64,000 nucleotides of DNA from IMG/VR virus record IMGVR_UViG_3300021356_000797, positions 39,841 through 103,840 of that record. One strand, given 5' to 3'. The DNA is from a virus. How positions within the stretch are numbered: the stretch's first letter is position 1; every line of letters begins with the position of its first letter. Of this stretch, positions 3,375-39,203 are shown piece after piece. The position numbers and the translations under genes are program-made. A model generated the notes under the pieces. It did no database searches and had not been told where the DNA came from. It saw nothing but the letters and a program-made list of their open reading frames with translations.

Positions 3375-6300
3375 ATGGCAAAGAAGAAGACTACTTCACA
3401 AGCAGCTAATGCTGCTATGCAGATACATACAGACTCTTTTGTAAAAGGGATGGTACAAGATGTCAATGAATCTTTTCAGACAGCTGGTACGTGGCCGCAT
3501 GCAAGAAACGCAGTAAATAATTCTACAGAAGGAGATGTTGGTACATTAGAAAATGAAGCATCTACTAAGCTCTGTGTTGAAGTCCCTTATGATGTAATTG
3601 GACAGATCCACCTATATGATGATAAGTGGGCAATCTTTACTACTGATGATATCAATAGTGAGATTGGTATGTTTGATGAAAGCCAGTGTTCTTATACTAA
3701 GATTGTCAATGATTCAGTACTAGCTTTTGATAGAAACCATTTAATTAAAGGTGCTGCTAAAGAAAACTATGATTGTACTTGGCAATTGTACTGGGATGAT
3801 GGTAAGAACCCATCAAGAACTTTAAATATTGACGACATCCCTTACAAAGTTACTAAGACTGTAGTGGATGATTGTGTAGTAGAAACTCCTACTGATAAGT
3901 TAGATGAAGACCAGATCCGTTTAGCAAGACTAATGGACACTCCTTGTATTACTATAGAGCAGGGAGAAGTGGGTACACTACTTAATGGTACTTACCAAGT
4001 ATATATTGCTTACTCTGTAAATGGTACAAGAGTTAGTGATTACATGGCAGCTTCTAATTTACAATCTATATTCTTTCATGAGAATAGTGTAGGATCTATT
4101 GAAGTTAATATTGAGGGTTTAGATACAGAACGTTTTGATGAGTTTGAGCTTGCTGTTGTAACCTATATTAATCAGCAGACAAGTGCTTCTACATTTGGTT
4201 ATTATTCTACACAAACAAAGCGTATAACTATTGACAGTATAGATCAGCGTTTAGTAGCTATTCCATTAAGCATGCTTCTTTTACGTAAGCCTGCTTATGA
4301 AAAGTCTGATGCTATGTACACTGTTACCAACTACTTGTTGAGAGTTGGTGTATCAGATAAGTTTGATTTTAACTACCAACCTTTAGCTAATAAGATTAAA
4401 GCTAACTGGGTTGCTGTAGAGTATGATGCAGACTATTACAGAGATGGTGGTAGCAATACTGGCTATATGCGTGATGAGCAGTATGCATTCTTTATTAGAT
4501 GGATTTACAATACTGGAGAGAAGTCTAGCTCATATCACATTCCTGGTAGACAAGCTTTCTCAGGAGATAGACAGCTTTTAGCTCCAGATGGTACAGAGAT
4601 TTGGGGAGATACCCTACAAGAGAAGTGGAGTGTATATAACACAGCTACAGTAACTAGCATTCAAACTGAAAACTTACCAGACGGTGGTAAAGTAGTTAAA
4701 AGAGGTAAGATGGGTTACTGGGAGTCTAGTGAAAGATATCCTGATAATAAGCCCGTGATATGGGAAGATCTTTGTGGTAAACCTATACGTCACCATAAGA
4801 TGCCAGATGATTGTATTATTCCTAGACATAATGAGGGTGGTACAAAAATTAACGTATTAGGTGTAGAGTTTACTAATATCAAACCCCCAGTAGATAATGA
4901 TGGTAATCTAATTCCTGGTATTGTAGGTTATGAGATTCTTAGAGGATCTAGAAAAGGTAATAAGTCTATTATTGCTAAGGGTCTTCTTAACAATATGTTT
5001 GAGTACAGTATTCCAGGTAAAGATGGAATTACAGGAATGTATCCTAACTATCCATTTAATGATCTTAGACCTGACCCATATCTGACAAAATACTTTCCTG
5101 AAGATGGTAGATTAAATCAAGTAAAACGTAATAAGAATAATGAATTTGCAATAGACACCTATAGCAAACGTCATTTTACATTTCATTCTCCTGATACACA
5201 GTTTAAGCATCCGTTCTTATCAGGATCAGAACTACGTATATATGGAGATGCTGTAGGTTCTTCTGAGGGTCAGTTTATAGATCCTTACAAACATCCTGAG
5301 CACAAGATGTTAGGAGATAGTGTAATGCTTATTGCAGTTCTATTAGGTTTAGGAAATGTTATTAGAGGTATGTCTGGAGAGACTACACGAAAAGTTACTT
5401 TTCCTAAAGTTGCAGGAGGAAACATTACAGGTGCTGCTGGAGCTGCTGCAGGGATAGCGGCAGCTATAACTGAAGGAGGTTTACAAGCAACTGGTGTAAA
5501 CTTTTTAACTAAAATAACAAGTAGTGATGCAGCTTCTAAATTATTAAAATATGGAGCTAGTGTTGCTTTTGGAGGCGAATATGAAGAAACAACTACAGGT
5601 TCTTCATATAGTGAGTTACCTCCATTTTTAAAATTATTTTCAATTGTACCAGCCTTCTTAACATTTACTCAGATAGGTACAGATCAAGCATTAGATCTTA
5701 TTTATAATATGCTTGGTTATAAACAATATGCTTTGCAACACATTGCACACGGTAAGTATGATAAGTTTGTATGTACTACATCTGGTAATAAAAGAAGAAA
5801 ACTTGATAAAGGTATTTACCTAAAGAATCAAAACTATTCATTTGATACAGATAGAAGTATTAATAACTTTATGCGTAGCAGAACTGTTGCGCTAGAGGTA
5901 GCTAAAAATATTGCAGATCCTATTACTCCAGATACTAGTAAGTATACATTGGGTAGTAGACAGTTTTGGGATTTAGATCTTAAGGATGTAAAGGATGAGG
6001 TTTTTAATTCAACTATTTCGTCTAAGTATGTTGGAATTAAGATTCAGAATGAAAATCAATACGGTCAGTTAGATAGTATTGCTCAATCTTTAACATCATG
6101 TGCCCAGATTTTACCAAGTGTATATGGTGTAAATAGTGAGTTTAAAACTCCTGTTCTATTTGGAGGAGATATTTACATTACTAGATACACTGAGAAGAAT
6201 ACAATGTTCTTTTTTAATGATTGGTTGGCAGGTAAAGAATTTCAAGATGGTGAGGAATATGATTACCGTCAACACATTAATGTACCGTATCCTAGATACT

Positions 6301-8162
6301 ATGCTAACACTCAGAGATATAGATTTGATAATTTTGTAGAAGGGTTAAGCCAAAGTTTATTTAGTCTTACAGGTATTAAAAATTTACTTACAGGATTTCA
6401 AAAAGAAGATGACGTACAAGATCAAATTGACACGTTACCTTCTGACTTTCATAACTTAGATAGAAAGACCTCCCCTAATGGTTTATTTAGAGCTAAGGGT
6501 TGGTTCTATCTTTTTAACTCAGGTGTTAAAGATTTCTTTGTAGAATCAGAAATTAACTGTGGCTACAGAGATCATGATGATAAGCCTACTACGCGTCACT
6601 ATGACGACAGAGAATACACAGACTTACAACGTATCTTCCGTGCAGATGAGATCACTGCGGGTAACCACTTTAAGTATGACTTCTCTCTATCAGCTGGATA
6701 TTACTTTACTACAAATGTTACTATGGGTAATATTCAGACTAGAGATTATGATCCTGAAATATCAGAGACATGTCATACATACTACCCTAACAGATTGATA
6801 TACTCTCTGCCACAAGAGCAAACTCTTAAAGTTGATAACTGGAGGACCTTCCTGGTAAACAATTATCAAGATTTTAAGAGCCCCCTTACAGCAGTTAAAC
6901 CTATTGGTGACGCTGGTGCATTAATCATGCTGCGTAGAGAATCTCCTATGTTCTTTGCTGGTAATGATACCATTCAATCTACAGATGGATTAGAGATTAC
7001 TATTGGAGACGGAGGACTATTTGATTCACGTCAAAAGATTAGAAACGTAGTTAACACTGATGCATCTTATGAGTATGGTAGCTGTCAAAACAGATTAGCT
7101 ATTAGTGCTACTCCTGCTGGTATCTTCTATGTATCACAGAACCAAGGTAAAATCTTTGCGTATTCTAATACGCTTAAAGACTTAACTGGTGCTGGAATGA
7201 AGTGGTGGTTTGCTAAGTATCTACCATATCAGATTAAAGAAGACTTCCCTGAGTTTGATCTTGTAGATAACTCTGTAAATGGTGTAGCGGTTTCTACTAT
7301 CTATGATAACAGAAATGCAATCTTATATATTACTAAAAAGGATTACAAGCTACGTTCTGAGTATAAGGGTAAAGTAGAATGGATTGAGAATAATATCTTC
7401 TCTGTAGGCAATGCAAGAGTAGAGCTTGGGGATAGTAGATTCTTTGAAGATGCTAGCTGGACTATTAGCTATGACGTTAAGTCTGGTGCATGGATCTCAT
7501 TCCATGACTGGCATCCTGATGTATTGCTACCAGGTAAGAATCTATTCATGAGTGTTAAGGATAAGAAGATCTGGAAGCACAATAATAGATGTGATAGCTT
7601 CTGTAACTTCTACGGTAAAGACTATCCATTTGAAGTAGAACAGATTATCAACACTGGTCAAATGGTTTCTACTATTAGAAGCTTTGAGTACCAGTTAGAA
7701 TGTTACCAATACAAGGAGAACTGTAAAGATGAGTTCCATATCCTAGATGCAAACTTTGACAGAGCTGTAGTATATAACTCTGAGCAAGTATCAGGTATGC
7801 TTAATCTAAATATTTCTCCTAAGAATGACCCTCAAGGAATTTTAGGCTATCCTAAAATAAATGTTGCAAGTATTGATATCTTGTATAGCAAAGAAGAAAA
7901 TAAATACAGATTCAACCAGTTCTGGGATATTACTAAAGATAGAGGTGAGTTTAGTAATGTGACTCGTAATGTATGGGATACACAACCTAACGGTTACATT
8001 AGAACTCTTAACAACTTCAATCTAGACTACACTAAAGATGCACATGAGCATAAAAAGTTCCGTCACTATAATAACAGATTGTTCTTGAAAAAGAATGTAT
8101 CAGGAAGAACTAAGATGAGACTGAGGTTAACCAACGCTAAGCTAAATATTTCCCATAGATAA
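3375..8162 (+). CDS. Tail stabilisation/muzzle protein (P22 gp10-like, crAss Tstab)
   Basis: 1595 aa, beta-rich; 'FVKGMVQD', 'GYMRDEQYAFFIRW', 'WTISYD..W.SFHDWHP' match crAss-like Tstab. Confidence 0.8.
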   Translation: MAKKKTTSQAANAAMQIHTDSFVKGMVQDVNESFQTAGTWPHARNAVNNSTEGDVGTLENEASTKLCVEVPYDVIGQIHLYDDKWAIFTTDDINSEIGMFDESQCSYTKIVNDSVLAFDRNHLIKGAAKENYDCTWQLYWDDGKNPSRTLNIDDIPYKVTKTVVDDCVVETPTDKLDEDQIRLARLMDTPCITIEQGEVGTLLNGTYQVYIAYSVNGTRVSDYMAASNLQSIFFHENSVGSIEVNIEGLDTERFDEFELAVVTYINQQTSASTFGYYSTQTKRITIDSIDQRLVAIPLSMLLLRKPAYEKSDAMYTVTNYLLRVGVSDKFDFNYQPLANKIKANWVAVEYDADYYRDGGSNTGYMRDEQYAFFIRWIYNTGEKSSSYHIPGRQAFSGDRQLLAPDGTEIWGDTLQEKWSVYNTATVTSIQTENLPDGGKVVKRGKMGYWESSERYPDNKPVIWEDLCGKPIRHHKMPDDCIIPRHNEGGTKINVLGVEFTNIKPPVDNDGNLIPGIVGYEILRGSRKGNKSIIAKGLLNNMFEYSIPGKDGITGMYPNYPFNDLRPDPYLTKYFPEDGRLNQVKRNKNNEFAIDTYSKRHFTFHSPDTQFKHPFLSGSELRIYGDAVGSSEGQFIDPYKHPEHKMLGDSVMLIAVLLGLGNVIRGMSGETTRKVTFPKVAGGNITGAAGAAAGIAAAITEGGLQATGVNFLTKITSSDAASKLLKYGASVAFGGEYEETTTGSSYSELPPFLKLFSIVPAFLTFTQIGTDQALDLIYNMLGYKQYALQHIAHGKYDKFVCTTSGNKRRKLDKGIYLKNQNYSFDTDRSINNFMRSRTVALEVAKNIADPITPDTSKYTLGSRQFWDLDLKDVKDEVFNSTISSKYVGIKIQNENQYGQLDSIAQSLTSCAQILPSVYGVNSEFKTPVLFGGDIYITRYTEKNTMFFFNDWLAGKEFQDGEEYDYRQHINVPYPRYYANTQRYRFDNFVEGLSQSLFSLTGIKNLLTGFQKEDDVQDQIDTLPSDFHNLDRKTSPNGLFRAKGWFYLFNSGVKDFFVESEINCGYRDHDDKPTTRHYDDREYTDLQRIFRADEITAGNHFKYDFSLSAGYYFTTNVTMGNIQTRDYDPEISETCHTYYPNRLIYSLPQEQTLKVDNWRTFLVNNYQDFKSPLTAVKPIGDAGALIMLRRESPMFFAGNDTIQSTDGLEITIGDGGLFDSRQKIRNVVNTDASYEYGSCQNRLAISATPAGIFYVSQNQGKIFAYSNTLKDLTGAGMKWWFAKYLPYQIKEDFPEFDLVDNSVNGVAVSTIYDNRNAILYITKKDYKLRSEYKGKVEWIENNIFSVGNARVELGDSRFFEDASWTISYDVKSGAWISFHDWHPDVLLPGKNLFMSVKDKKIWKHNNRCDSFCNFYGKDYPFEVEQIINTGQMVSTIRSFEYQLECYQYKENCKDEFHILDANFDRAVVYNSEQVSGMLNLNISPKNDPQGILGYPKINVASIDILYSKEENKYRFNQFWDITKDRGEFSNVTRNVWDTQPNGYIRTLNNFNLDYTKDAHEHKKFRHYNNRLFLKKNVSGRTKMRLRLTNAKLNISHR

Positions 8163-11100
8163 TGAAAGGCCGGATTACTAAAACAGGGTATAGAAGAAAT
8201 TCACCAGACGTGAATAATGACTTTAATATTATTCCTAGTAATAGGATTAGTATGAAAGGCGTAGACTTTCCTGTGTTGGGTATTGATAACTTGGGCAATA
8301 CTCAATTAATGCATCCCGGAGGAGAGTATGAATATCAAGGAGATTATGTCACAGAGCTCCCTATGTATGGTTCTGGTGGCCTCACTCAGTGGTTTGCAGA
8401 GGAATGGGTGGACATTAAGACTGGTAAAAAATGTGGTAGATCTGGAAAAGACAAAAAGGGAAGACCTTACCCAGCGTGTAGACCAAGCAAAAGAGTAAAC
8501 AAGACAACACCTAAGACAGCTTCTGAGTTATCTGCAGCTGAGAAAGCTAAGTTTAAAAGAAAGAAGAAGTCAGGTAAACGTATTGATTATAATCATAAGC
8601 GTGCTCAAGAAGGTACTGAAGTCCCATTAAATCGTAGTGAAGTATTTAACATTCCTAGAACTCTTAGATATGAAAATGGTAATATGGTTCTTCAAGATAA
8701 ACCTGTCTGGGACGGAATGCTTGACGAAGTTACTATTACTCCTTATACTCAATCTGAAATTGCATTTCAGGAACTAATGAATAATAAAGCAACTGGAGGT
8801 TTAGAGCCTGTATATCCTGTATTTGAGGTGCTTAGTGCAGGTATAAAAACTCCTTTTACAGCAAGTGCTAAAGCTTTACAAACTGGCGTTAGAAAAGCTC
8901 CTTCTGTAATTAACCCTAGATATTTTAAACCTAACTCTAACATGTACTATAGAGGTATAGGTAAAAAAGGTATGGAAGATGCTTTACAGTCGGGGTTGTT
9001 TAGAGCTAAACCTGCTGATCAAATTCCTGCACGCATGGTAGATTTAGGATCTGTGGGTAAAGTAGACATGGCTAAACGTTTTAATAAGACTTACTATAGT
9101 CCTCGTTTTAATATTGCAGATCAATATGGTGCAGGATATATAGCAGAGGTACCTAAAGATGCAGCTAAGTTTAGCAAACGTTATAAAAACACTGACTGGA
9201 GCATGTCTACTAGAGAACAGATTCCAGTTAGTAAAGGCCGTATACTAGAAAAAAATTGGTGGTCTGGTTATAAACCAGTTAAAAAATACGGAGGTTCACT
9301 ACCTAAAGCTCAGGAAGGTAATAGTGAAGCACCATTAAACCGTGGTGAAATATTTAATATTCCTAGGACAATGGGATATGAAGATGGTAAAATGGTTGTT
9401 CAAGACAAACCTATCTGGGATGGTATGCTTGACGAGGTTACTATTACACCTTATACGCAAGGTAATATTTTATCTGAGTATATGATGAATAACAAAGCTA
9501 CAGGAGGATTAGAACCAGTATACCCTGTTTTTGATTTAATGACTTTAGGTTTAAAAGCTCCTGCAACAGCTGGGGTTAAAGCTATACAAGCGGGTATTAA
9601 AAAAGCACCTTCTAAATTAAACCCTAAGTATTATAATCCTAATATGTATGCAAAAGGGAATCCAAACGTTATGTATAGACAGGTTGGAAAAGATGCTTAT
9701 CAGGATTTTGCAAATAGTGGATTTGTGAGAACTAAAGCTGAAATTACAGATAATCCTATATTAGGGTTACTTGAGACACAAAAAGAAATAAAAGATGTTC
9801 TACGTTATAATAAAGAGTATAGACCATCTCAATATAGACACGCTACAGACTTTAGAGCTCCTTTTTTTAGCAGAGGTAAAACAACTACAATAAAAGATGG
9901 GGGTGCTGATTACTTGATTCAAACTCGTCCTGATAAAGTTGGACCTAATAATTTTTATAGTGCACAGTGGAATATTCTTCATGGAGATCAGCCGCCCGTT
10001 GTAGGTGGGTTTGGAATAATGGATCCTATGTACAGAGCTGCGGATAACTTTGATGTATTTAAGAAAAGTTGGTGGCATGGTTATAAACCGGTTAAACAAT
10101 TAGGAGGATCTTTAACCAAATATCAAGTACAAGGAGAAGTATTTCCTACAATGCTTGATGAAGTAACTGTTATTGATAAAGGAGCGCCTTCTGCATTTGG
10201 TAAAGGAAGTTCAGATAGAATGGGTACTACCTATACTATTCCAATGAATATAAAAAATGCTAGAGGGTATAGTCAAAATGGAATGCGTGTTTTATTTGAC
10301 AGCCCTGGTAAATTAGCAAAAGATGCTCAAAAGGAATTTAGATCTCAATTTGGTTTTAATGCTAATAAGTTAAAGAAGAATTTTAAAAACATATTTAGTC
10401 AAGACTTTATAACTCTTGGAGATGATCAGACTTTTCAAAATGCAGCTTATGCTGGCCCCATGAGTTTAAGTAATTCTTATTTTATTAATGAGTCAGATAA
10501 TATTATTGAGCCAAGAACTATTAGCAGGAGTAATACAAAAGTTACTACTAACCTTATTAATAATGATAGATCTGCTTTACTTGCAGATATGGCAAGACCT
10601 GGTACTAAAGCAGACTTTTTTAATTTATTTCAACAACGTGAAGGTTTTAGACCTTATTTAGAGGCTAAGGTTAGTAATGGTAAAGTGTATGATGCTAAAC
10701 TTGGTGAGGAAGATGTTACATCCAGAAGTCCTTTTGAATCTAATATGATTAACTATCTAGGTAGTGATGCATATTTTGAAAGACTTGCTGGCACTCAATA
10801 TAATAATGAGATAGATGTTAATAAATGGTCTACAGATAAAGACTATAGAAAATCTTATGCAGAACGTTTAAAAGCAGATAAACCAGAATTCCTTAAAAAT
10901 TATTATGAAGGTCTTTCAAAAACTCTTGCAAATCCTATAGTTGCTGAAATAGATCACAATCTTGGATCATATGCTAGTGCAGGAACACATAACCATGGAA
11001 CTTTAACAGGACAAAATGTTATAGATTACAACCCTTATAACTTTAATAATGCCTTTGGAGGAGCAGAGAAAAGAAAAGAAGCCTTGATAAAAGAGTTAGA

Positions 11101-12697
11101 ACGTAGAGGGGCTACTCCTGCGGAAATTGATGTAACAATGGAATATGGTATAGGGCCAGGAATGAATGATAATTTTTCCGATGTAATGTCTCATGAGCTT
11201 GCCCATGTTTATAGTCTGGGATCTAAAGATTATATTTTAAATAATGAGTCTGCAAACGTAGCTCCTGGTATAGATAAAGAATATGAGCTTTTATGGAATA
11301 TAAACAAAGACACAAAAGATCAACCTTTTTATTCATATCAAAACCATTTAAATACTGGGTCAAAACCTATTAGTTATAATACTGCTTTAAACAGTGAAAT
11401 ACAAAATGTTGCTGACCGTTTAAATACTAGGTACCATAACATTTCTCCTGAAGAAACTAAAGCTGATGTATATGGTATCAGAAACTATCTTCTTAGAACT
11501 CAAGGTCAAGATTATGATCAACCCTTTACTAAAGAAAATTATGATTCTTTAATGAATGATGACAAATTTAAAGAAGGTTTGTTTTATAAGCGCATGCAAG
11601 AAAGATATGGTGATGATCAATCTAAATGGATGAAAGCTATGAATCTTATTGCTTCAAAAGAAGATGGTAAAAATTATAGAATGTATGCAGAACGTGGTGG
11701 GCAGTTGCCTAAAGCTCAAAAGGGTAATGGTGAAAAACACACTGTAGCATCAGGTGAAACATTCTATGGTATTGCTAATAAAAATGGTATTGCTTGGGAA
11801 GATCTTGTTAGTGCTAACCCAGGTGTTGATATAGAAAAACTTTCAGTTGGTCAGATCATTAATATCCCATCTGTTTCAAAATCAGGGGGTGTAAAAATTA
11901 CATACTCAGATCCTGAACTTAACATTCTTCAGCAAGAAAGAGAGCTTGGAAATATAAAACAATCAGAGCCAGAACAAGTAGAACAGGTTAAAATTACAAA
12001 GCAACCTGTTGAAACTAAAACTACTCAGGTATATGATGGTCCTGGTTATTTTCCAGAAGCGTTGCTACTTAAGCAAGCATATAAAGAATCTACATTTAAT
12101 CCGGCTGCTCAATCTAAGATTAAAGATCCGGCTCAAGGATTTGCCCAGTTTAGACCTATTACTGTAAGAGAATTGCAGAGACTAGGTTTTGCTGATGATA
12201 CATTTGATCCTTTTGATTACACTCAGTCTATTGGTGCTCAAAGAGATTATATGAACTATTTGTATACTAGACCATGGATAGATAAGCCTAATCAATCTGA
12301 AGAGGTGAGATTAGCAAAAACATTAGCAGCATATAATTGGGGACCAGAAGTATTTAAGACATTCTTGACTAATAAGAAAGCAGCTGGAGTAGATATATAT
12401 AACTCCTTAGATTGGGTAGATCAATTACCTGGAGAAACTGGTGATTATATTAATAAGATTTTATTAGATAGTGATGAGCAATTCCAGGCAGATTATCAAA
12501 AAGCTCTTAAAGACAGTGCTAACTTAAAGTACATTAACCTTTATAATCTAAAAGCAGGAGGAGAATCTCTACCAGTATATAATACATATAAGACTAAGAA
12601 TAGAGCTTGGTTAGCAGCGCGTAAAAATTTAGGCGCTAATAAGAAGTTTATGTACGGTGGTAAAGTTTACTCTACAAGCACACCTAAAGGGCTGTAA
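8162..12697 (+). CDS. Modular virion cargo protein: small basic domain, two tandem ART-like modules, zincin (HELAH), LysM, lytic transglycosylase (SLT)
   Basis: HELAH at 11192-11206; LysM 'HTVASGETFYGIA...LSVGQIINIP' at ~11738-11869; SLT 'KESTFNP..AQGFAQF..LAAYNWGP..ETGDYINKI' at ~12074-12460; internal duplication. Confidence 0.75.
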   Translation: MKGRITKTGYRRNSPDVNNDFNIIPSNRISMKGVDFPVLGIDNLGNTQLMHPGGEYEYQGDYVTELPMYGSGGLTQWFAEEWVDIKTGKKCGRSGKDKKGRPYPACRPSKRVNKTTPKTASELSAAEKAKFKRKKKSGKRIDYNHKRAQEGTEVPLNRSEVFNIPRTLRYENGNMVLQDKPVWDGMLDEVTITPYTQSEIAFQELMNNKATGGLEPVYPVFEVLSAGIKTPFTASAKALQTGVRKAPSVINPRYFKPNSNMYYRGIGKKGMEDALQSGLFRAKPADQIPARMVDLGSVGKVDMAKRFNKTYYSPRFNIADQYGAGYIAEVPKDAAKFSKRYKNTDWSMSTREQIPVSKGRILEKNWWSGYKPVKKYGGSLPKAQEGNSEAPLNRGEIFNIPRTMGYEDGKMVVQDKPIWDGMLDEVTITPYTQGNILSEYMMNNKATGGLEPVYPVFDLMTLGLKAPATAGVKAIQAGIKKAPSKLNPKYYNPNMYAKGNPNVMYRQVGKDAYQDFANSGFVRTKAEITDNPILGLLETQKEIKDVLRYNKEYRPSQYRHATDFRAPFFSRGKTTTIKDGGADYLIQTRPDKVGPNNFYSAQWNILHGDQPPVVGGFGIMDPMYRAADNFDVFKKSWWHGYKPVKQLGGSLTKYQVQGEVFPTMLDEVTVIDKGAPSAFGKGSSDRMGTTYTIPMNIKNARGYSQNGMRVLFDSPGKLAKDAQKEFRSQFGFNANKLKKNFKNIFSQDFITLGDDQTFQNAAYAGPMSLSNSYFINESDNIIEPRTISRSNTKVTTNLINNDRSALLADMARPGTKADFFNLFQQREGFRPYLEAKVSNGKVYDAKLGEEDVTSRSPFESNMINYLGSDAYFERLAGTQYNNEIDVNKWSTDKDYRKSYAERLKADKPEFLKNYYEGLSKTLANPIVAEIDHNLGSYASAGTHNHGTLTGQNVIDYNPYNFNNAFGGAEKRKEALIKELERRGATPAEIDVTMEYGIGPGMNDNFSDVMSHELAHVYSLGSKDYILNNESANVAPGIDKEYELLWNINKDTKDQPFYSYQNHLNTGSKPISYNTALNSEIQNVADRLNTRYHNISPEETKADVYGIRNYLLRTQGQDYDQPFTKENYDSLMNDDKFKEGLFYKRMQERYGDDQSKWMKAMNLIASKEDGKNYRMYAERGGQLPKAQKGNGEKHTVASGETFYGIANKNGIAWEDLVSANPGVDIEKLSVGQIINIPSVSKSGGVKITYSDPELNILQQERELGNIKQSEPEQVEQVKITKQPVETKTTQVYDGPGYFPEALLLKQAYKESTFNPAAQSKIKDPAQGFAQFRPITVRELQRLGFADDTFDPFDYTQSIGAQRDYMNYLYTRPWIDKPNQSEEVRLAKTLAAYNWGPEVFKTFLTNKKAAGVDIYNSLDWVDQLPGETGDYINKILLDSDEQFQADYQKALKDSANLKYINLYNLKAGGESLPVYNTYKTKNRAWLAARKNLGANKKFMYGGKVYSTSTPKGL
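8603..10108 (+). repeat. Tandem intragenic duplication (copy 1 ~8603-9295, copy 2 ~9308-10108)
   Basis: Both copies read AQEG..PLNR.E.FNIPRT..YE.G.MV.QDKP.WDGMLDEVTITPYTQ...MNNKATGGLEPVYPVF... and end WW.GYKPVK..GG; the middles diverge. Confidence 0.9.
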
Positions 12698-12716
12698 ATA
12701 TGGTAGTCTGCTATAA

Positions 12717-12737
12717 TTTTTGTATATTATAAATGAG
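12717..12737 (+). promoter_or_regulatory. Putative phage late promoter (motif copy 2)
   Basis: TTTTTGTATATTATAAATGAG upstream of ATG 12753. Confidence 0.55.
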
Positions 12738-12752
12738 ATATCGTAACTAGTT

Positions 12753-14114
12753 ATGTCAAAAAATATTCCCACAAATAAGAAGCTTTATGCTAGAGTAAAA
12801 GCAGAAGCTAAAAAGAAATTTGATAGATGGCCTTCTGCCTATGGATCTGCCTGGCTTGTAAAAGAATACAAGAAACGTGGCGGAGGTTATAGAAAGGCAG
12901 AAGAAGGAATGGAAGTTCCTGATTATGGTTACGGTGGCGGCATGAACTATGCAGACTATGCTTACATGTATGGTGGTGAAGATGCAGACATGATGGAATA
13001 TGCAAAGGGTGGTGGGATACCTGAGCGTTACAAGAACATGGGATTCACTAAAGTAGGTGTAAAGAAAAAGTCTACACGTCCTGGTAAAAAGTGGATGGTA
13101 CTTGCTAAGAAAGGAGACAAGTACAAAGTGGTACACGGTGGTTTTAAAGGAATGAAAGACTACACCCAACACGGTAGCTCTAAAAGACGTAAACGTTTTT
13201 GGGATAGAATGGGTGGTAAAGACTCTGCTAAAGCTAAAGATCCATTTAGCCCACTATACTGGCACAAGAGATTTGGTACCTGGGAAGAAGGTGGTGAAAT
13301 CTTTAATGAGGATTCTATGGATTTCTACGCACAAGGTGGTGGTACAGATAACCCAGGATTTAAAGCATTACCTCCAGAAGTACAGCAAAACATTCTAGAC
13401 AATATGGGTATTGGTGGTGAGTGCTATGCTTGTGGTGGTCAAAAGAAATATCAGCTTGGTGGTAAGCCTGGAAATCCATTTACTCAAGAAGAGTTGGATT
13501 ATATGGAGAGCATGTATCAACAACCTGATCTAGAATATTTACCTTATCCAGATGATACTGGTAACTTGGATGTAATGTACCCAAACCCAGCCATGGGGTT
13601 AGATGTAATGCCCCCAGACTCAACTATAGAGTTAGATGAAGTGGTAGTAACAGATACTAGACTTGGTGGTTTAAAGCCTAAGCCAATTCCAGATATGACT
13701 CCGGAAATGTTTGAGCCTGCTTTAATGCCGGTAACACTACCAGAAAGAGTGGAGTCTTATATAGAAGATCCAGAGAAAGAGGAAGAGCAAAAGAATAAGC
13801 CTAATAGAAGATTACAGTGGGCTATGGGTAGAATTGCTATGGCTAATGCTGCAAATCAGTTTATGGAAAACATGAATGACCGTAAACAAGAAGCTAAAAT
13901 GAGACAGAATCTTCTTACTGATAACTTTGTACCAATGATTACAGGTAATGACAGAGGAGACTATGATATAAATACAGGTATCTTTAGACCTGATGATTAT
14001 GTACCTACACAGTTTCAATCTTTTATGGCAAAGGGTGGACAGATTGGTATGGTAGATGAAGACATATTACAAGAACTTATTGCAGCAGGTGCTGACATTG
14101 AAATCTTAGACTGA
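12753..14114 (+). CDS. Modular virion/cargo protein with DUF5872-like N-terminus, DUF5754-like basic domain and many xxGG motifs
   Basis: 'KKLYARVKAEAKKKF..WPSAY.SAWLVKEYKKRGGGY' and 'KKWMV...VHGG..GMKDYTQH...RR..F..R......SPLYW'; family names from recall. Confidence 0.6.
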   Translation: MSKNIPTNKKLYARVKAEAKKKFDRWPSAYGSAWLVKEYKKRGGGYRKAEEGMEVPDYGYGGGMNYADYAYMYGGEDADMMEYAKGGGIPERYKNMGFTKVGVKKKSTRPGKKWMVLAKKGDKYKVVHGGFKGMKDYTQHGSSKRRKRFWDRMGGKDSAKAKDPFSPLYWHKRFGTWEEGGEIFNEDSMDFYAQGGGTDNPGFKALPPEVQQNILDNMGIGGECYACGGQKKYQLGGKPGNPFTQEELDYMESMYQQPDLEYLPYPDDTGNLDVMYPNPAMGLDVMPPDSTIELDEVVVTDTRLGGLKPKPIPDMTPEMFEPALMPVTLPERVESYIEDPEKEEEQKNKPNRRLQWAMGRIAMANAANQFMENMNDRKQEAKMRQNLLTDNFVPMITGNDRGDYDINTGIFRPDDYVPTQFQSFMAKGGQIGMVDEDILQELIAAGADIEILD

Positions 14115-16066
14115 TGAAGAAGATAAAAATTAATAAACTTCCTAAAGGCTTTCACAGAATGCCAGACGGCACAATCATGAGAGACTCAGACCACCAGAAA
14201 ATGCAAGCTGGTGGTCAACCTGTTTTAGGGCCAACACCTAGAGCAGCAGCTAATCTTGAAGCAGAAAAGGGAGAAACAGTTGTTACAGATTTAGATAATA
14301 ACATGATTCCTGAGCACTATAAGATTGGTGGTAAGAAGCACAGTGAAGGTGGTACACCTCTTAATCTTCCTCCCAAGTCTTTTATCTTTTCAGATCATAA
14401 GTCTATGTCAATTAAAGGTGATGACTTAAAGAAGTTTACTAACACTAGTAAAAAGTCTATGACCCCAGCAGCTATTGCAGGGTTAAAGAAGTTTGACATT
14501 AGTGAAGAGAATAAAATTCTAAAAGATCAAGATGCAGATAAAATGGCTAAGGCTACTGCAGAGCGTAACATTCAAGCTAAGCTTGTCAAGTTAGGAGAGC
14601 TTGCTATGCTTCAAGAGTCTAAGAAAGATTTTGATAATGGTATTCCTGAAATTGCGTTGCCATATTTAAAACGTAATGGAGTAACTCCTGAACAAGTAGA
14701 GATGATTAATGCAGAGCTTGAGCAGAGAAATATGATGGAAGAAATGGCTGCTTATGGTAAAGAGATGTATGGATGGGGTGGTCAAAAGAAAATGCAGGGA
14801 GGTGGTCAGCCTAATGTATCTTATGCTCCTGATGCATTAAAAGTATTTAATCAATATGGTCTAACATTTAGTTTACCTGGTGCAACTGCATACGCAGATG
14901 TACAGGGTTATAAAGGAGATGGTCTATTCGGTGATGCTGAAACTAACCTTCCTGGGTTCTTTGAAGAGTTTACTGGAGTGTACTCTGATATTGATGCACT
15001 TAAAGAATCTTTAGATGATTATGGTGTTAATGATGTAAACCCTGAAGTTAAGAAATTCCAAGAGTGGTATACTAATACCCACATTCCTGAAGTAGCAAAT
15101 CAGATTCGTGCTGAAGTAAAAGAGAAGAGAGGTTATGAGATGACTGATGATGAGTTCAACGGTCTTGTAACTGGTCTTACTAGTGAGTTTGGTTTTCAGG
15201 ATGGTAAGAAAGGATTTGGATTTGATGGTAAGATGGGTACTGTAACTTCTGGTAGAAGAAGGTTAGGTTACTCTATAGATCCTATTGAAGATACCCCGGA
15301 AATTACACCACCAGAAACTATTCCTTATGAAGGAGAGGGTAGTGATACTAATTTTTATCAGCAAGATCTTGTAAAGATTGGTGCTAAGCTTGCAGATAGA
15401 GCAAACAGATACTATGGTTATACTCAAAGATTACAACCATACTTACCTGATCCGGTATTCTTAGATCCTGAAAGAGAGTTGCAAGCTAATCAAGAGGCTT
15501 ATGCTACAGCTGCAGCTACTCAAGGTCTTGTGGGCAGAGGTCAAAATTTAGCCGGCAATCTTTCTTTAATGCAAGGAAAGCTGGCGGAGCAACAAGCTAA
15601 TACATTAGCTAGATATACAAACGCTAATAATCAAATAGCTAACAGCTTTGAGCTTAAGCGTGGAGATGCTATTAATGCTTTCCAAGAGTACAACGCATTG
15701 CAGAATAGACAGCAAGCTATGGATACTGCCATTGTTAACCAGCAGTATGATAACTTTAGACGTCAGAAAAGAAATGATTTGGCTAATCTATATGCACAAG
15801 CTTTAACTAACAGAGCAGAAACAGATCTTCTTAATGATCTGTATCCTCAATATAGTATTGAACCTTTAACTGGGGGTATGGGATACTTTACCGGTAGAGG
15901 TTGGGATCCTAATTCTGATATGACTGCTTATGATAAGTTCCGTCAACAGTATTTACAAACTACTTTAGGAGGCCCTAGAACTAAAGAAGAAGGCTCAGTA
16001 CAAAAGAAATATGGTGGTTCTGCCTATAACAGAATGGGATTGAGTAAATTTATCAAGCGTAAATAA
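14114..16066 (+). CDS. Putative virion cargo/ejection protein
   Basis: 'NLEAEKGE...GKKHSEGG..L....FIFSD' domain, Q/N/A-rich helical C-terminus, no Cys seen; crAss cargo-gene position. Confidence 0.6.
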   Translation: MKKIKINKLPKGFHRMPDGTIMRDSDHQKMQAGGQPVLGPTPRAAANLEAEKGETVVTDLDNNMIPEHYKIGGKKHSEGGTPLNLPPKSFIFSDHKSMSIKGDDLKKFTNTSKKSMTPAAIAGLKKFDISEENKILKDQDADKMAKATAERNIQAKLVKLGELAMLQESKKDFDNGIPEIALPYLKRNGVTPEQVEMINAELEQRNMMEEMAAYGKEMYGWGGQKKMQGGGQPNVSYAPDALKVFNQYGLTFSLPGATAYADVQGYKGDGLFGDAETNLPGFFEEFTGVYSDIDALKESLDDYGVNDVNPEVKKFQEWYTNTHIPEVANQIRAEVKEKRGYEMTDDEFNGLVTGLTSEFGFQDGKKGFGFDGKMGTVTSGRRRLGYSIDPIEDTPEITPPETIPYEGEGSDTNFYQQDLVKIGAKLADRANRYYGYTQRLQPYLPDPVFLDPERELQANQEAYATAAATQGLVGRGQNLAGNLSLMQGKLAEQQANTLARYTNANNQIANSFELKRGDAINAFQEYNALQNRQQAMDTAIVNQQYDNFRRQKRNDLANLYAQALTNRAETDLLNDLYPQYSIEPLTGGMGYFTGRGWDPNSDMTAYDKFRQQYLQTTLGGPRTKEEGSVQKKYGGSAYNRMGLSKFIKRK

Positions 16067-22748: not shown

Positions 22749-25700
22749 ATGGCTTTTTGTAATATAAAGACTAAACAGGCTCAAGGACTTGCAAACATTA
22801 TTGCAAAAGATGTAGCAAACAAAAGAAACGCAGGCACTCCTTACAATGTAGAGGAGGCTATGCGTAATGTCTACAATCTAATGATTGAGAATGGCCAAGA
22901 CAAAGATAGAGCTGTAACCATGGCAGCCTTAGTACCCAAAGCTGTAATTGCACAAGTTGGTCAGTATGCTCCTAACGGTGCCTACTTAGCTCCTATTCTA
23001 GGTAAAGTGGGTGAGCTGGTAAGTAAAGCCACAGACTTTAATTCTGTCATAGAAGTAATGGGTCTACAAGAAGAGTTTGCTGAAAAGTTAAATGATGTAG
23101 AACAAGCTCAAAATAATGAGATAGATGTAGAGTCTCAACCTCAGTCAGTTGAATTACCTAAAGTAGAATTAGTAGGTGGTATTCCACTTGTAGATTCAGG
23201 ATTAAGTACTACGGTATTAGAAATAGGTGACGCTGAAGGAGATCCAGCAGTAAAAGCTAATGGAGAATTTATTAGAAAGTTTATTCGCCTTGGTCAATTG
23301 CAGAGTAAAAACTTTTCTGAAGCTTATGTCTTAGATAAGATTTCTACTTACAAACTAGCATTGGTATCTTCAACTAAGATTCCTCAAGAGTCTAGAGTAA
23401 AAGCAGACGTTTATGGTCCTGTAGTATATGCATTTATTGATAGTCAGGGTAGAATTGTAACTGATGAAAACGGTCACACTCCTCACGCATTTGTAAGACC
23501 TGTTGAAAAAACTGAAGATGGTTATGTATTTAGAAAAGAGAAAAGTACCAGCAGACTTCAGATTAATAAGACAAACGCTAATAATTTAGGCCTTACTTTA
23601 GAACAGTTTGAAAAGAAAATTAAAGCTGAGGCTAGTTTCTTAAATAATGCTGCTAGAAGAATATCATCTTCTCCAGATACTATTATTCCACTAGAAGCTG
23701 TAAGAGGTACGCTTGGTGTAATAGCTAATGCTAAATCAGTTCCACTTAAAAGTATTCCTGATTTCCAACAGGAGTTTTTATTACCTGAAGGTATTGGATC
23801 TGGTACTGGTAGAATTGCTAACGTTAGCACTTTAAATAAAGATGGTAAGGTTAACGTTTATCAGGCGTTTGTATTTCAGTATCCTGGATATGATTATACA
23901 CTTCAAGCAAACGGTTTGTTACTCCGTGACACGGAATATGCCCCAGCAATCAAAGAGATTTTATTATCAAATGATTACACCCCTCTTCAGAAGAAGAACT
24001 TACTTTTTAATATTCTACAAAAGAACGTCCTTGATTTTGCAGATACTGGTGTAAAGATCCCATACTATGGTCCTAATAGTAAGGGTATCATGGTTGTTAA
24101 GGGTAAGAAAGCTATAGACTTGTCTAAGCCAGAAGAAGCTGCAAAACTTGTTGATGACTATATTAATAGAGCATATGTTAATGTGCCTATTGATTCTAAT
24201 CAACAGTATGAGTTTGATGGTCCTGTATTAGTAAGTACAAGTTCTAAAAATAAAACCTTTTTGGAGGGTGAAGATGGTACAAGATATGAATTTGAAAACG
24301 TAGTTAGTAAGTATGAGGTTGGCAAAATTCAAATGGTTAACCATATATACAATAATTTTAGAGTGTATGCTCCTACGGATTCTAAGGGTAACCTTATTAC
24401 CCCTAGTCCAGTAATTACATACAAGGCCCCTATAGAAGAAGCTCTTGCTACACCAGAAGTTTTTCAAGAAGAAAGTGTAGAGCAGATCCAAGAAGAATTA
24501 AAACTCTTAAAATCAGAACAAGCAGAAGGTAGTGCAAGTCTAGAAGATATCCTTAATCAGATTCCAGAGGACATGCCTTCTGATATGAATAAGGTATTTG
24601 GTAGAAAAAGAACCAGCCTGGATAAAGTAGATACTTTGTCTAGTGAAGCAACAGCAAAACAAATTGCTGAAGCTAAAGCTTGGTTTGAAAGTTCTCCACT
24701 ATCTAAAGTTATTCCTGTAGAGAAATGGTTTGAGATTGTAAACAGTGGTAAGGTTGCAGAATTTACTGCTAATGCTATTAAGTTGTTTGCTGGCTCTAAC
24801 TATACAGATCTTTACCATGAGGGATGGCATGGGTTCTCTCAGTTGTTCTTAACTAAAGCTGAGAAGGTTGCCCTATACAAAGAAGTAAGAAAGTTACATG
24901 GTAACATTACATTCTTAGAGGCAGAAGAATTACTAGCTGAGGATTTCCGTAAGTATCGTTTAAGTAATGGTACAATGGTGATGGATAAATCACCAGCTAA
25001 GCGTAGCATCTTTAAAAAGATTTTAGACTTCCTAAGAGCTTTGTTTGGTAACACTGAGACTAAGGTTCAGTACCGTGAGATGGTGGCTCAGGAGAAGGCT
25101 CTGCAAGTTATTAAGGAGTCTTATGACATGTTATATAGAGGAGAGTTTGAAGAACGTAAACCTAATATAGACAACTCATTCTTTCTTACTCTTAATAAAG
25201 GTGTAGAAGGAGCAGACGGTAAAGCGCTATCAGCTAAAGATTCTAAAGATATCTCTGATGCAATGGATTCTATTGTAGCTGGTATTATTAGAGACTACTC
25301 ATCTAGCCCTAAAGAAGTACTTAATAAGGAAGGAGCACTTCAGTCTCTTTATAATACTGTTAAGTTTAGACTTAGAGTGCAATTAAAACTTGCAAGCTCT
25401 GCTTCTAAAGTTGAAGACTATACTAAACTATCAAAGGAAGCTAAGTCTGATTTTATAGAGCAAGAGTTTAAATCAATTCTAGATAAGTTTGAAGATGTAG
25501 GCTTAAGAGATGAAAATAAATCTTATATTCTATCACAAGCTGAAATTGTATTATCTAAGCCTGTTGATAAGAACGCATATTACTCATTAGGTTTAGCCTT
25601 AACAAATTTTGGTGATACTGCTACCCTAAAAGATAATGCAGAAAGCACAATGCTTGGGTATCACTTTAAAACTTCAAGATACCTAGAGTCATTAGCTAAG

Positions 25701-28700
25701 TCAGAAGATATTACAGATCTTTTGGAGCTTGATATTGTAGATAGTGCTGATGATTACATGTCTTTCTATGATAAAGGTGGTAATGAAGTATCTGTTAAAG
25801 ACCTAGCAGATAATTCTGTATTGTATGCAGTACGTTCTATGAGACAGTACGATAAGTCTGGTAAAGTTATAAAGGACCGTTTTGGTTATGATAAGCTTGC
25901 TGACTTTGGTAAATCCTGGAATAGACTAAGTACAATTCTTAGAGAGTCTTACAGCATTGAAGATATGCTGGATAGAGTTAATTCAGAATCATTTAAAAAT
26001 AAAGCTTTCCAAGATCTTCAAACTGTATTGGGTAAAAATGCTGAGGCTAAAGATGATTACAAGTTTAGAATGCAAACATCTTTCTGGCAGGCATTTAATA
26101 AAGCATTTGTTCCTATATACGTAGCTTATACTACTACAGTTCTTTCTGATAAAGGTGAACTACAGCAACCTCTAAGTATTAGAGTAAAACGTGCTGAAGG
26201 AGAGGTAAGTTCTGTAGAAAAAGATCTTACCCGTAAATTTCAAGCTAATAAATCTCTACCCAATACATCTCAAGTTAATGGTACTAGAGTCCTTAATGTT
26301 ACAAAGGTCTTAGAAAAGTACAAAGGTATTACTGCAGAAAATGTTGTAGAGTTCTACAAAGACATGGGGGTTTTACCAAATGAGTTAGAGTCTTCTACAG
26401 TAAACTTCTTGTTAAGTGGAAATATACTAGTTAACACAAACTCTATGGTTGTTAACTTAAATAAGTTGGCAGCATCTAAAGAGGCAGATCTAACTACTGC
26501 AAATCCTATAAACTTTTTATCTACAGATCAAGGACTGTTCAGAGGGATGAGAAGCACCATAAAAAATATTGTAGAACAATACGGTGCTAGTGTAGGTGAT
26601 ACTGGATCATCAAGAAAACTTACTGCAGAAAGAACTACTCAGTTTGAAAGTTCTCTTAATAGTAGAGCTACAAAGATTGTCCAGTTATTAAATGGTGTAG
26701 AGAAGAATCTTGATGAGCTTCTTAACAGTCCTGCTACTGCTAATTTACATCCAGACAATAATCCTGCAATGGCTACCAATCCTATTATGAGATCTTTATT
26801 CATTATGGATAAGGAAGCACCAGGTTACAAGTCTCGTAAGACATCTAAAAACTTGTACTTGTTTAATGTAAGTGGGATGACTACAGATGTATCTGTTGTT
26901 AAATATGATAAAAACACTGGTGCAGATGTTCCAATTAGTAATACTATTAGAGGTACTAAGAATATTTCTCTTGATGAGTATACTAAATTAAATCAAGACA
27001 TTCATACTCTGTTTGTTCAAGGATATGTAGAAAACGTAAGAGCTTCTGATAAGAGTACATCATTAGCATGGAAGGTTTCTGGAGAGTCCGCTTACATTAC
27101 TCCAGCAGATGTAATAAACAAAACTTACCTAAGCAAGGCTACTAGAGCTGTGGTTAATATGCTGGCCGGAGAAATGGCTACTATTGCTAAGTATGCTGAC
27201 GCAGAGCTAAATGTGTTTGATGCTAAGGGTAATCCTATTAAAATGGATTCTTGGCAAATATTTGCTGATGTTACTGATAATGAAGGAAATGTAATTAAAG
27301 AAAACTTATTAGTTAATCCAGCAACTAAGGCTAAACTTAATAAGATAATTAAGTCTGGTAAAACAGATGCTAATGAAATAGCTAAGGAAATTCTAAAAGA
27401 AGATAGTGGACTACGTGAGGAAATTGAAAAAGGACTGCGCAGAAAAATTAAGGAAGAGTTACAAAATTTAACTGCTGTATTTGAAAAGAATGTAGAGCTT
27501 GTAGGTAAAGGAATGGCAGTTAGTAAAGAATTGAGATCTAAGATTTCTCAAAGAGCTGCTTTACCAAAAGATAGAAAGACTTTAGAAACTGCAATACTTA
27601 CAGCATTTATTACTGAAACTTTTATTCGTAATGAAGCATTCTTTAGTATTGCTAACGGTTCTTTAGCTAGTTACAGATCTGCAGATGATACTATCAAACG
27701 TAATACTACTACCTCAACAGGTAATCTATTCCGTTCTGATCAAGCTGCACAAGCTTATATTACTGCTCAAGGTAGATTACTAGAAGCTTCTTATAGTAGA
27801 AGAACTGGTAAGCCAGTAATGCCAAGAGATTACACTGGAGTTTTAAGAACTGCCATCTTAAAGGAAATGACTATTGATGGTAAAGAGCTTAACTCTGAAT
27901 GGTATGCACTTGCAGAAGAAGCTTTTAAAGCTGATGGGTTTAGTCAACAAGAGGTGGACAGTATACTTGAAGCTTACCGTAGCATGGATGAGGCAGATGC
28001 TCAGGCTTACATCACTATGGATACTTACAGACAATTAAGTATTGCAAGTGATGAATGGACTCAAGAGCAAGAGTATATGTATAACAAGCTGGTAGCTGGT
28101 GAAAACATTAATAACCCTCAGCAATACTTCCCTGTTAGAAAATATCAATACACTGGACCACTTCTTAATGCTGGTGCCCCAGTACAAGGTTTACACAAGT
28201 ATTCATTATTCCCATTAGTTCCTTCTGTTATTCAGGGTACTAACCTTGAAAAGCTTAATGAAGCTATGATGGAAGCGGGAATTGATTACGTTACTTATGA
28301 GACTGGTAGTAAAGCTGCAAGAGTTGGGCAACCAGTAGAAGCATTTGTAATTAATAAGGAAACTGGGGAACGTACTGTCCCAGAACAAACAGTTGAAAGC
28401 TTTAAGGAGAATGTTAACCTTATTCATACAGATTTCTTAAGAGATCAGTTGAGAATCAATTCTCAGTTTAAGGGTTCAGCTACTTTCTCTACTCAGTTTA
28501 GAAAGCTTCTTGCTGATGGTATATATGAAAACGGGGTTGCTAAGAATAAAGAGTTGGCCAAAGCTAATGAAGCATTCCTTAAAAACATTGATGACCTTAT
28601 TGCATATGAGACAGCTCTTCTAGAAAAAGAAATAGATACTAAGGATAAACTAGTTGCTCTAATTAAAAGAGAGCTTGAAAGAAGAGATGTAGAAGACTAT

Positions 28701-38122: not shown

Positions 38123-38304
38123 CCTGGACGAGTGTACGTATGGTATACTTGCTGATGTCCTTGGTGTTATTCACTGGATGGGTGACACGTACTTGGGACA
38201 TTGTAGGTTTTGTTATTGTAATGTTACAGGTTGGTGTATGGACGAAGTTCTGTCCAAGCAAGTGGGTGTTTGAAAAGTTAGGTTGGAAAAAGACTGAGCT
38301 ATAA
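38062..38304 (+). CDS. Small membrane protein, YgaP/DUF2892-like (start may be 38140)
   Basis: Two TM helices then 'TKFCPSKWVFEKLG'; TAATG coupling to the kinase. Confidence 0.6.
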   Translation: MEKILSKIKSSVAILLTNVVTWTSVRMVYLLMSLVLFTGWVTRTWDIVGFVIVMLQVGVWTKFCPSKWVFEKLGWKKTEL

Positions 38305-39203
38305 TGTCTGTACTTGATGGAATATCAATAAGGAGTAGGATCTGCCTACTGTGCTCCACTATAATCATGTTGACATTCTTTGTCTTCAAGACTATGGTGG
38401 TGTTCCGTTTTATACATCATAGTACGTTTACCCATTACTTTGAGTGGCTGAGTGTAATAGCGTTTATGCCTCCGTTCTTTGTAGTTGTTAGAGAATTCCT
38501 TCAGAACAAAGAGAGAATCAAAGGTGATCTGAACCAAAAGAATATATATCTAGAGCATGCTGCTAAGATTATTAGACATGACATGCACAGTGGAATCAAC
38601 ACTTATTTACCCAGGGGTATCAAATCATTAAAGCGCAGGTTAACTGATGAGGATATTGCTGAGCTAAAGATTGGAAGTCCTTTGAAATTGATACAGGATG
38701 GACTACATCACGCACAGAAGGTATACAGTGGGGTATATGAGTTCACTAATCTTGTTAAAGAGGGTGCACAGCTAAACAAAGAAGTTAAAAATGTAAAGGA
38801 GATCTTGGGTGATTATCTCAAGCTTACTGCATATAAGAATCAGGTTGTACTAGATGATAGTCTAGATACACCGTTAGAAGTAAATGAGGCGCTGTTCTGT
38901 ACAGCGGTAGATAACTTTATAAGAAACGGCCTAAAGTATAATGATTCTGGTACCAAGTATGTAAAGATATACTTCCAGAATAACTACAATAAGGCATTAC
39001 TATTGATCATAGAAGATAACGGGCGTGGTATAACTGCTGAGGAATTTGTTGAGCTCAGTAAACCATATGTCCGTAAAGAAGGACAGAAAGAAACTGGTAC
39101 GGGATTGGGACTGAACATCTCAATTTCTATTTTAAAAGAACATGGATATATGGTACGGGCTGAGAAAACAGAAACCGGTACTAAAATAATTATTGAGATA
39201 TGA
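38304..39203 (+). CDS. Membrane sensor histidine kinase
   Basis: Two N-terminal TMs; H-box 'IIRHDMHS', N-box 'NFIRNGLKYN', G1 'IEDNGRGI', G2 'GTGLGL'. Confidence 0.9.
   Translation: MSVLDGISIRSRICLLCSTIIMLTFFVFKTMVVFRFIHHSTFTHYFEWLSVIAFMPPFFVVVREFLQNKERIKGDLNQKNIYLEHAAKIIRHDMHSGINTYLPRGIKSLKRRLTDEDIAELKIGSPLKLIQDGLHHAQKVYSGVYEFTNLVKEGAQLNKEVKNVKEILGDYLKLTAYKNQVVLDDSLDTPLEVNEALFCTAVDNFIRNGLKYNDSGTKYVKIYFQNNYNKALLLIIEDNGRGITAEEFVELSKPYVRKEGQKETGTGLGLNISISILKEHGYMVRAEKTETGTKIIIEI

Follow-up and report, generated by a model that had tools for sequence, protein, structure and literature searches.

The stretch of DNA analysed here (the window, 64,000 nucleotides, positions 39,841 to 103,840 of IMG/VR record IMGVR_UViG_3300021356_000797) is part of a 103,840-bp crAss-like phage genome, in which genes for the crass-type capsid, ring 1, ring 2 and muzzle proteins are present, and the three open reading frames (ORFs) directly downstream of its muzzle gene, designated A, B and C, are rich in a short motif, composed of a bulky residue (Phi, standing for Y, M, F or W), two further residues and a double glycine (GG). 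Comparison of related loci demonstrates that each small module of these proteins is bordered exactly by this motif, and that insertion, deletion and duplication of modules, as well as fusion and splitting of genes, take place in frame at this point. We propose Phi-x-x-G-G as a short linear joint motif of the C1-type cargo proteins in crAss-like phages, and we give an even chance to the reading that it is a retained joint (a helix stop and a swivel, possibly also a weak multivalent contact), doubling as an evolutionary splice point. A joint of this kind would remain in the finished chain, uncut; the bulky residue and the first glycine would terminate the preceding element, often a helix; GG would act as a hinge between modules; and the repeated copies may offer many weak contacts to a component of the virion (ring, muzzle or portal proteins, for instance).

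The motif and its distribution in the genome

The genes in question belong to the virion block, and their order is identical in 61 related loci. As the gene preceding them is recognized as that of the muzzle protein, A, B and C are placed at the head of the cargo genes, behind the tail tip, and from the gene order they are predicted to encode tail-proximal, first-ejected (C1-type) cargo proteins. They are followed by ORF D (946 amino acids, aa), ORF E (1259 aa) and two giant ORFs (2929 and 1805 aa).

3375..8162, + strand: muzzle protein gene (Pfam crAss_MUZ, E=8.6e-29)
8162..12697, + strand: ORF A, 1511 aa, modular, putative cargo protein, with a DUF5872 C-half (aa 71-139), two duplicated cassettes, an HExxH motif, LysM (aa 1193-1236) and SLT (aa 1298-1407) domains
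12753..14114, + strand: ORF B, 453 aa, with a DUF5872 N-half, a Tlr6F/DUF5754 module, short beads and a conserved C-terminal tail
14114..16066, + strand: ORF C, 650 aa, without a Pfam family, with 4 strict motifs

The matches to DUF5872 in A (48.2 bits) and in B (39.9 bits) and to DUF5754 (Tlr6F) in B (37.1 bits) are all above the respective Pfam gathering thresholds (27.5 for DUF5872 and 27.4 for DUF5754).

In its strict form, [YMFW]-x-x-G-G, the motif is found 16 times in A, B and C (2614 aa) versus 13 times in the other 82 ORFs of the genome (30348 aa), a rate ratio of 14 (Fisher p = 6e-11). When each protein is compared with its own shuffled versions, B, the richest of the three, possesses 9 strict motifs versus 0.96 expected (p<2e-4) and C possesses 4 versus 0.76 expected (p=0.006), while A, with 3 versus 1.4 expected, shows no significant excess alone (p=0.16). 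The enrichment over background on which the original prediction, made from the letters of this DNA, depended is borne out for the three ORFs together and for B and C separately, but not for A by itself. The result for A would be compatible with chance or amino-acid composition as the source of the motif; such an origin is scarcely credible, however, given the genome-wide figure, the excess in B, the recurrence of the motif in 76 motif-rich ORFs across 80 related loci and the register of the indels described below. The same prediction had noted that the motif was not evident in the giant proteins downstream, and indeed the 2929-aa protein has a single strict copy, while the 1805-aa protein, D and E have none.

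As to the form of the motif, it had been given as (K/M)-(A/Y/M)-x-x-GG, with 21 strings listed, every one of which is present in A, B and C. The conserved position, however, is the bulky residue at -3 from the first Gly (Y in 38%, M in 22%, F in 9% and W in 6% of 544 distinct contexts from B homologues, about 75% together), Lys being only a weak preference. Neither do the strings represent a single motif: KRAQEG is a decayed copy, and RKAEEG, PKAQEG and PKAQKG are members of a second, separate sub-motif, K-A-[QE]-x-G, which is located 2-3 residues after GG and originates in the central part of the DUF5872 family. In 33 homologues of B, identity is 0.80 for Phi at -3 and 0.78 for GG, compared with 0.58 for the other flanking residues. 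Pro is mildly depleted at +1 after GG (3.3% versus 5.4%), yet it is found there at conserved sites, and it is enriched at +2 and +3. Full-text searches of the literature revealed no description of the motif.

Module borders in A, B and C and in their relatives

The sites in the three ORFs are as follows, with the repeat families named where a site belongs to one.

8360..8380, + strand: A, PMYGSGG, immediately 5' of the DUF5872 C-half; relatives have ...GSGG or ...QHGG ahead of L-x-x-W-F-A-E
8597..8614, + strand: A, KRAQEG, decayed joint closing the DUF5872 C-half; relatives have H-K-R-x-x-G-G here
9281..9319, + strand: A, KKYGG-SLPKAQEG, joining cassette 1 to cassette 2; repeat D2
10094..10108, + strand: A, KQLGG, at the end of cassette 2
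11681..11725, + strand: A, MYAERGG-QLPKAQKG, joint; LysM starts 5 residues later
11873..11890, + strand: A, VSKSGG, immediately 3' of LysM
12548..12562, + strand: A, LKAGG, past the SLT domain
12647..12661, + strand: A, FMYGG; the C-terminus is 11 residues further
12867..12908, + strand: B, YKKRGGG then RKAEEG, where the helix hairpin of the DUF5872 N-half ends
12924..13016, + strand: B, array YGYGGG / YMYGG / YAKGGG; unit number differs between relatives; predicted local distance difference test (pLDDT) score below 50
13281..13295, + strand: B, WEEGG, closing the Tlr6F/DUF5754 module; insertions in relatives occur mainly here
13326..13463, + strand: B, YAQGGG, MGIGG, YACGG and KYQLGG, closing four short beads
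14022..14039, + strand: B, FMAKGG, ahead of the conserved 24-residue C-terminal tail
14198..14215, + strand: C, KMQAGG, 34 residues from the basic N-terminus; repeat D4
14315..14332, + strand: C, HYKIGG
14765..14806, + strand: C, MYGWGG-QK-KMQGGG, double joint
16004..16018, + strand: C, KKYGG; the C-terminus is 15 residues further

In A, all seven of the sites originally assigned to domain boundaries, and VSKSGG as well, fall at borders set independently, by Pfam or by the duplication. In B, G43 and G44, where the predicted helix 29-41 stops, are invariant in the 33 homologues; W177, G180 and G181 of WEEGG, at which insertions of 45-206 aa begin in relatives, are also invariant, and so are G428 and G429 of FMAKGG. 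A double unit of the B beads is common to C (repeat D3).

The related set, comprising 80 IMG/VR loci, along with 907 homologues of B in the database, presents multiple examples of changes in register with the motif. Close homologues of B differ from it by whole blocks inserted between motifs, each inserted block ending in a motif of its own, and short units of the form E-D-E-Y-G-Y-G-G have undergone tandem expansion and contraction. For 105 distinct clean indels with well-aligned flanks, both ends are within 3 residues of a GG end in 58% of the cases, versus 4.6% under random placement. Across the 80 loci, the same modules occupy widely different positions, in different ORFs, fused or split. 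One example is the Tlr6F/DUF5754 module, which when internal follows ...M-R-N-G-G and starts with I-P-x-R-Y-K, and when encoded by a free gene starts with M-A-I-P-x-R-Y-K. Another example is the DUF5872 N-half, for which ...M-K-K-G-G is followed internally by N-V-P-T-N-P, while free genes start with M-S-K-N-I-P-T-N or with M-A-N. In the distant loci L046 and L070, small post-muzzle ORFs that are unrelated to A-C carry the same motif, often in bare arrays (Y-K-I-G-G, Y-K-V-G-G, Y-Q-S-G-G, for example). The gap between consecutive motifs peaks at 7-9 residues, and among small ORFs the motif is present in 10 of 22 located in the cargo block versus 11 of 182 located elsewhere. The notion of plug-and-play modules, put forward in the original prediction, is supported: whether modules are inserted, deleted or expanded in tandem, or genes are fused or split, the breaks in relatives fall at the motif.

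The same indel register, along with weak direct repeats in the DNA of the motif (families D3, D4 and D8), would also be expected if the motif had no function of its own and either recorded past recombination at short GGT-GGT or GGA-GG repeats or had come down by common descent, as a linker, together with the shuffled modules. We consider this very improbable, as the bulky residue at -3 is maintained via unrelated codons (TAT, ATG, TTT and TGG), Gly codon use inside motifs is the same as for other glycines, the motif is conserved above its flanks, and it persists between proteins without detectable similarity (gp45 of crAss001, discussed below, versus A-C). A recombination signal at the DNA level was rejected, with no special Gly codon use and weak repeats only. 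Also rejected was a role for GGAGG as a ribosome-binding site for internal starts, as its use is confined to A, with GGTGGT taking its place in B and C; Bacteroidota rarely use ribosome-binding sites of the GGAGG type.

Two of the module arrangements deserve separate mention. The Pfam family DUF5872 is split between two ORFs, its C-half being encoded in A (8375-8578, aa 71-139) and its N-half in B (12768-12893, aa 6-47), the break coinciding with the internal Y-K-x-x-G-G of the family itself; gp70 of Roseobacter phage CRP-2 is the N-half alone, a free protein of 56 aa. A contains an internal duplication of 300 nucleotides (8614-8913 versus 9322-9621, 77% identity), the common head of the two cassettes, whose downstream parts of approximately 110-140 aa are divergent and both terminate in W-W-x-G-Y-K-P-V-K-x-x-G-G.

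Joint, processing site or docking handle

A retained joint is supported, in the first place, by the confinement of the enrichment to the three post-muzzle ORFs and by the conservation of Phi and GG above their flanks. The indel register, the starts of the free genes, the mobility of the modules and the motif in unrelated cargo ORFs of distant loci all agree with it. Structure prediction points in the same direction: an AlphaFold2 run on a 33-sequence alignment of B assigned a confident structure to two regions only, the helix hairpin of aa 1-48 and the Tlr6F module at aa 88-176, with the motif arrays in low confidence and modelled as disordered, and with helices 29-41, 208-221 and 419-426 predicted to stop at or just ahead of the GG of a motif. 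Further support comes from the failure to find a GG-type protease in the ORFs scanned, from the tolerance of Pro at +1, and from the GG bias of gp45 and the position of its resolved pieces between motifs, both described below.

One part of the original prediction saw the motif as a protease-cleavage signal. A, B and C would then be polyproteins, cut after or within GG by an unrecognised phage or host protease, before or after packaging, and the cut would release modules or strip short targeting tails. We consider this possible, though rather doubtful. It would fit the conservation of both glycines, the hydrophobic residue upstream, the information content skewed N-terminally, the position of the sites, directly adjoining module starts at which split genes have their natural N-termini, and the acidic stretches ahead of the very basic Tlr6F module, reminiscent of the precursors of virus core proteins. 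However, the bulky residue would be at position P5, while adenain, PLpro and ubiquitin-type sites use P4; the arrays, with motifs 7-9 aa apart, present also at N-termini, would release octapeptides only; the motif is retained in single-module free genes; and Pro occupies +1 in conserved sites. Cutting between E and G of K-A-Q-E-G, as at the A-x-E sites of T4 and phiKZ, was rejected separately, as the residue before Gly varies in relatives (E, M, Q, D, L, T).

The search for a protease was negative with respect to the expected types. Families of adenain, Ulp1 (clan CE), C39, papain-like and prohead proteases were detected neither in the Pfam-scanned ORFs (nearly all of at least 100 aa) nor in the ten ORFs also scanned with PHROGs; Peptidase_C5, C48 and C39 gave no matches, and zincin-like domains were the sole protease-type matches in the Pfam-scanned ORFs. 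HExxH motifs are present in A (HELAH, aa 1011), in the 2929-aa protein (HEGWH, aa 690) and in the 1805-aa protein (HEFSH, aa 138), as well as in motif-rich ORFs at 19 of the 80 loci, and these are in favor of processing; a further HExxH is found in the DUF2201_N protein of the replication block. The HELAH region of A has no Pfam or PHROG peptidase match, and it is conserved in none of the 80 related loci, from which it follows that no protease travels with the motif. As, in addition, HExxH is found in motif-rich ORFs at only those 19 loci, the putative zincin of A was rejected as the processing enzyme. Another candidate, the 421-aa gene product encoded between the portal and capsid genes, was rejected as well, as it is devoid of Cys and weakly resembles a scaffold protein (ESM Atlas).

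To our knowledge, the processing of crAss-like cargo by a zincin has never been demonstrated. It has been proposed for both crAss-like and polyvalent cargo proteins (bioRxiv 10.1101/2020.03.07.982082; PMC5512222), and this proposal counts in favor of processing. The HExxH motifs of the giant proteins (22749-31538, 2929 aa, and 31538-36955, 1805 aa) fit the zincin-like domains of polyvalent proteins of the virion RNA-polymerase type (PMC5512222). Some of the related loci (L014:1377-1751, L020:3421-3780, L040:814-1167 and about 13 more) encode a protein of approximately 120 aa directly upstream of the muzzle gene, with the minimal zincin-like motif S-H-N-x-I-[AS]-H-E-[VI]-[FY]-H; this protein has no counterpart in the genome analysed here.

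The cargo protein C1 of crAss001, gp45, provides a comparison with a phage of known virion structure. Homology of gp45 or gp46 to A-E was rejected, as none was found by BLASTP (best E = 0.56 for gp45). Nevertheless, gp45 contains 20 GG runs versus 11.6 expected (p=0.0025), and 9 GG runs with F, Y, W or M within three residues versus 3.4 expected (p=0.005). Two of its pieces have been resolved by cryo-electron microscopy, residues 214-245 on the tail rings and residues 425-552 on the portal wing (PMC10172136). The former is located between motifs ending at 210 and 265, and the latter stops short of the motif at 559-563. The latter also includes GG at 427-428, 434-435 and 447-448, all three being atypical copies of the motif, so GG as such is not always cut, which is a further point against processing. 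With no protease family detected in the ORFs scanned, the P5 register, the tight arrays and these internal GGs, the claim of a cleavage signal is left without direct support. That a single gp45 chain bridges the 420 Å between the two pieces is an assumption of the authors (PMC10172136), and processing would account for parts so far apart, on both sides of the portal. We also re-read the peak lists obtained by matrix-assisted laser desorption/ionization (MALDI) for gel bands of crAss001 (PMC6235969, supplementary file 14), with bands 11-13 (small) left out: gp45 never scored above chance, while peptide-mass fingerprinting assigned gp44, gp50/47, gp49, gp20, gp26/22, gp25 and gp23 in bands 1-9. 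The failure to see gp45 at full size in these published bands is a weak argument for processing.

Residues 246-265 of gp45 (L086:21988-24516), which follow the ring-bound helix, read S-F-Q-A-L-P ... N-A-F-A-E-G-G and resemble the bead G-F-[KQ]-A-L-P ... N-M-x-x-G-G of B and its homologues, so the two may represent a common mini-module despite the absence of overall similarity.

Docking offers another alternative: the motif may chiefly be a loading or docking handle that binds the scaffold, portal, ring or muzzle protein, so that any module with a copy would enter the particle. This we consider unlikely. The confinement of the motif to the cargo block, its presence in small free-standing cargo ORFs, the tandem arrays, which suggest binding strengthened by many copies, and its distribution in crAss001, where the tail-stored gp45 has it and gp46 does not, are all in its favor, as is the unassigned 14-residue helix-containing cargo fragment that sits on the crAss001 muzzle (PMC10172136). 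On the other hand, D, E and the RNA-polymerase-related giants are packaged without the motif, 12 of the 22 small cargo-block ORFs lack its strict form, no partner is known, and the gp45 segments resolved on ring and portal proteins are different from the motif itself. The original prediction had suggested a capsid-loading tag as well; as a general tag it is ruled out by the giant packaged proteins without the motif, while the motif may have a more limited role in loading or docking.

The C-terminal tail of the B-like proteins, being invariant, is a better candidate for an anchor. The last approximately 24 residues of B (14040-14111, aa 430-453) are the best conserved part of these proteins, whatever their modules, with L442, A444, G446, A447, D448, I449, E450 and L452 invariant, and distant forms terminate in similar G-x-x-[IF]-E-[IFY] tails. 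The tail is a candidate anchoring or loading peptide.

Some of the evidence weighs against a retained joint. Strict conservation of both glycines and of the bulky residue resembles that of a recognition site more than that of a mere hinge, and the absence of a spacer between GG and the next module is like that in viral polyprotein sites. The giant packaged proteins exit through the same tail without the motif, and it is therefore not required for extrusion as such. No binding partner of the motif has been identified, and cryo-electron microscopy density has been assigned to none of the motif itself. Intact gp45 in virions is an assumption only, and full-length gp45 was not found in the published bands of at least 70 kDa, an observation that is weak and incomplete.

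Known systems and further observations

Of the known systems, gp45 of crAss001 (C1; PDB 7QOG and others; Bayfield et al., 2023, PMC10172136) is similar in setting: its gene directly follows the muzzle gene, the protein is stored in the particle, small structured pieces alternate along its modular chain with stretches that are unresolved, and, like A-C, it has an excess of GG preceded by an aromatic residue. It differs in being a single protein of 842 aa with a glycine-zipper membrane segment and no BLASTP similarity to A, B or C, while here the content is distributed over three ORFs, with LysM, SLT, Tlr6F and DUF5872 modules; PMC10172136 makes no mention of the motif. The polyvalent proteins of phages and conjugative elements (Iyer et al., 2017, PMC5512222) are similar in combining many unrelated small domains in one delivered polypeptide, in possessing a zincin-like motif and a lytic transglycosylase, in rapid domain shuffling, and in that processing by the embedded zincin has been proposed for them. 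A likewise combines at least two unrelated domains (DUF5872, LysM and SLT, plus HExxH at aa 1011), one criterion for polyvalent proteins. No common junction motif is described for those proteins, however, and most of the modules found here are not catalogued there (PMC5512222).

A second group of systems involves short peptides at sites of processing or sorting. In processing of the adenain type, the adenovirus consensus is (M/I/L)-x-G-G-x, with the cut after the second Gly, and pp220 and pp62 of African swine fever virus (ASFV) are cut at GG-X. In adenain and ASFV pS273R-type processing, as here, a hydrophobic residue and then a double Gly are found at borders in packaged proteins, and basic modules follow. 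Here, in contrast, a protease of this kind was not found in the ORFs scanned, the hydrophobic residue is shifted upstream by one position, and tight arrays are present. In that type GG-X marks the borders of mature products; here GG lies at the borders of modules, which may or may not coincide with those of mature products. The capsid targeting sequence of T4 is a single N-terminal decapeptide of internal proteins, cut after Glu by the prohead protease. It is similar in being a short peptide common to otherwise unrelated packaged proteins, while the motif described here is internal and repeated, ends in GG and is missing from the largest packaged proteins. Double-glycine leader peptides (of C39/ABC exporters), each a single leader at the N-terminus that ends in GG, with a C39 exporter in the vicinity, are not matched either, as the motifs here are internal and repeated and no C39 domain was found in the ORFs scanned. 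Novel results of this analysis are the indel statistics, the finding that modules start internally where free genes have their N-termini, the connection to crAss001 gp45, and the negative outcome of a protease search across the genome.

A joint motif would provide a simple rule for dividing otherwise unannotatable cargo proteins into modules, would explain the fast reshuffling of cargo content between relatives, and would define exact places in which to look for processing or docking. Due to the link to gp45, the question can be addressed in a cultured phage, with the existing structure and mass-spectrometry data. Should processing by a phage-borne or a Bacteroidota host-borne protease prove true, this would amount to the first processing code defined for phage proteins that are injected, and the C1-type cargo would consist of genuine polyproteins made up of small effector and structural pieces, explaining the presence of parts of gp45 on both sides of the portal.

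A collection of phages searched with both the DNA and the proteins produced two marginal matches only. The sequence L-D-E-V-[TV]-[IV]-T is found three times in A (8717-8743, 9425-9451 and 10151-10177) and once in B (13632-13670), where D-T-R-L-G-G follows. It resembles the TonB box that TonB-dependent outer-membrane transporters carry at the N-terminus, and it is retained as L-[DE]-E-V-x-V in most of the 33 B homologues. Further downstream, the window encodes a protein with a histidine-kinase-type ATPase domain (38304-39203), a response-regulator receiver (39200-39634) and a PhoH-like protein (40200-40886), the latter two genes being separated by a single 188-aa ORF of unknown function.

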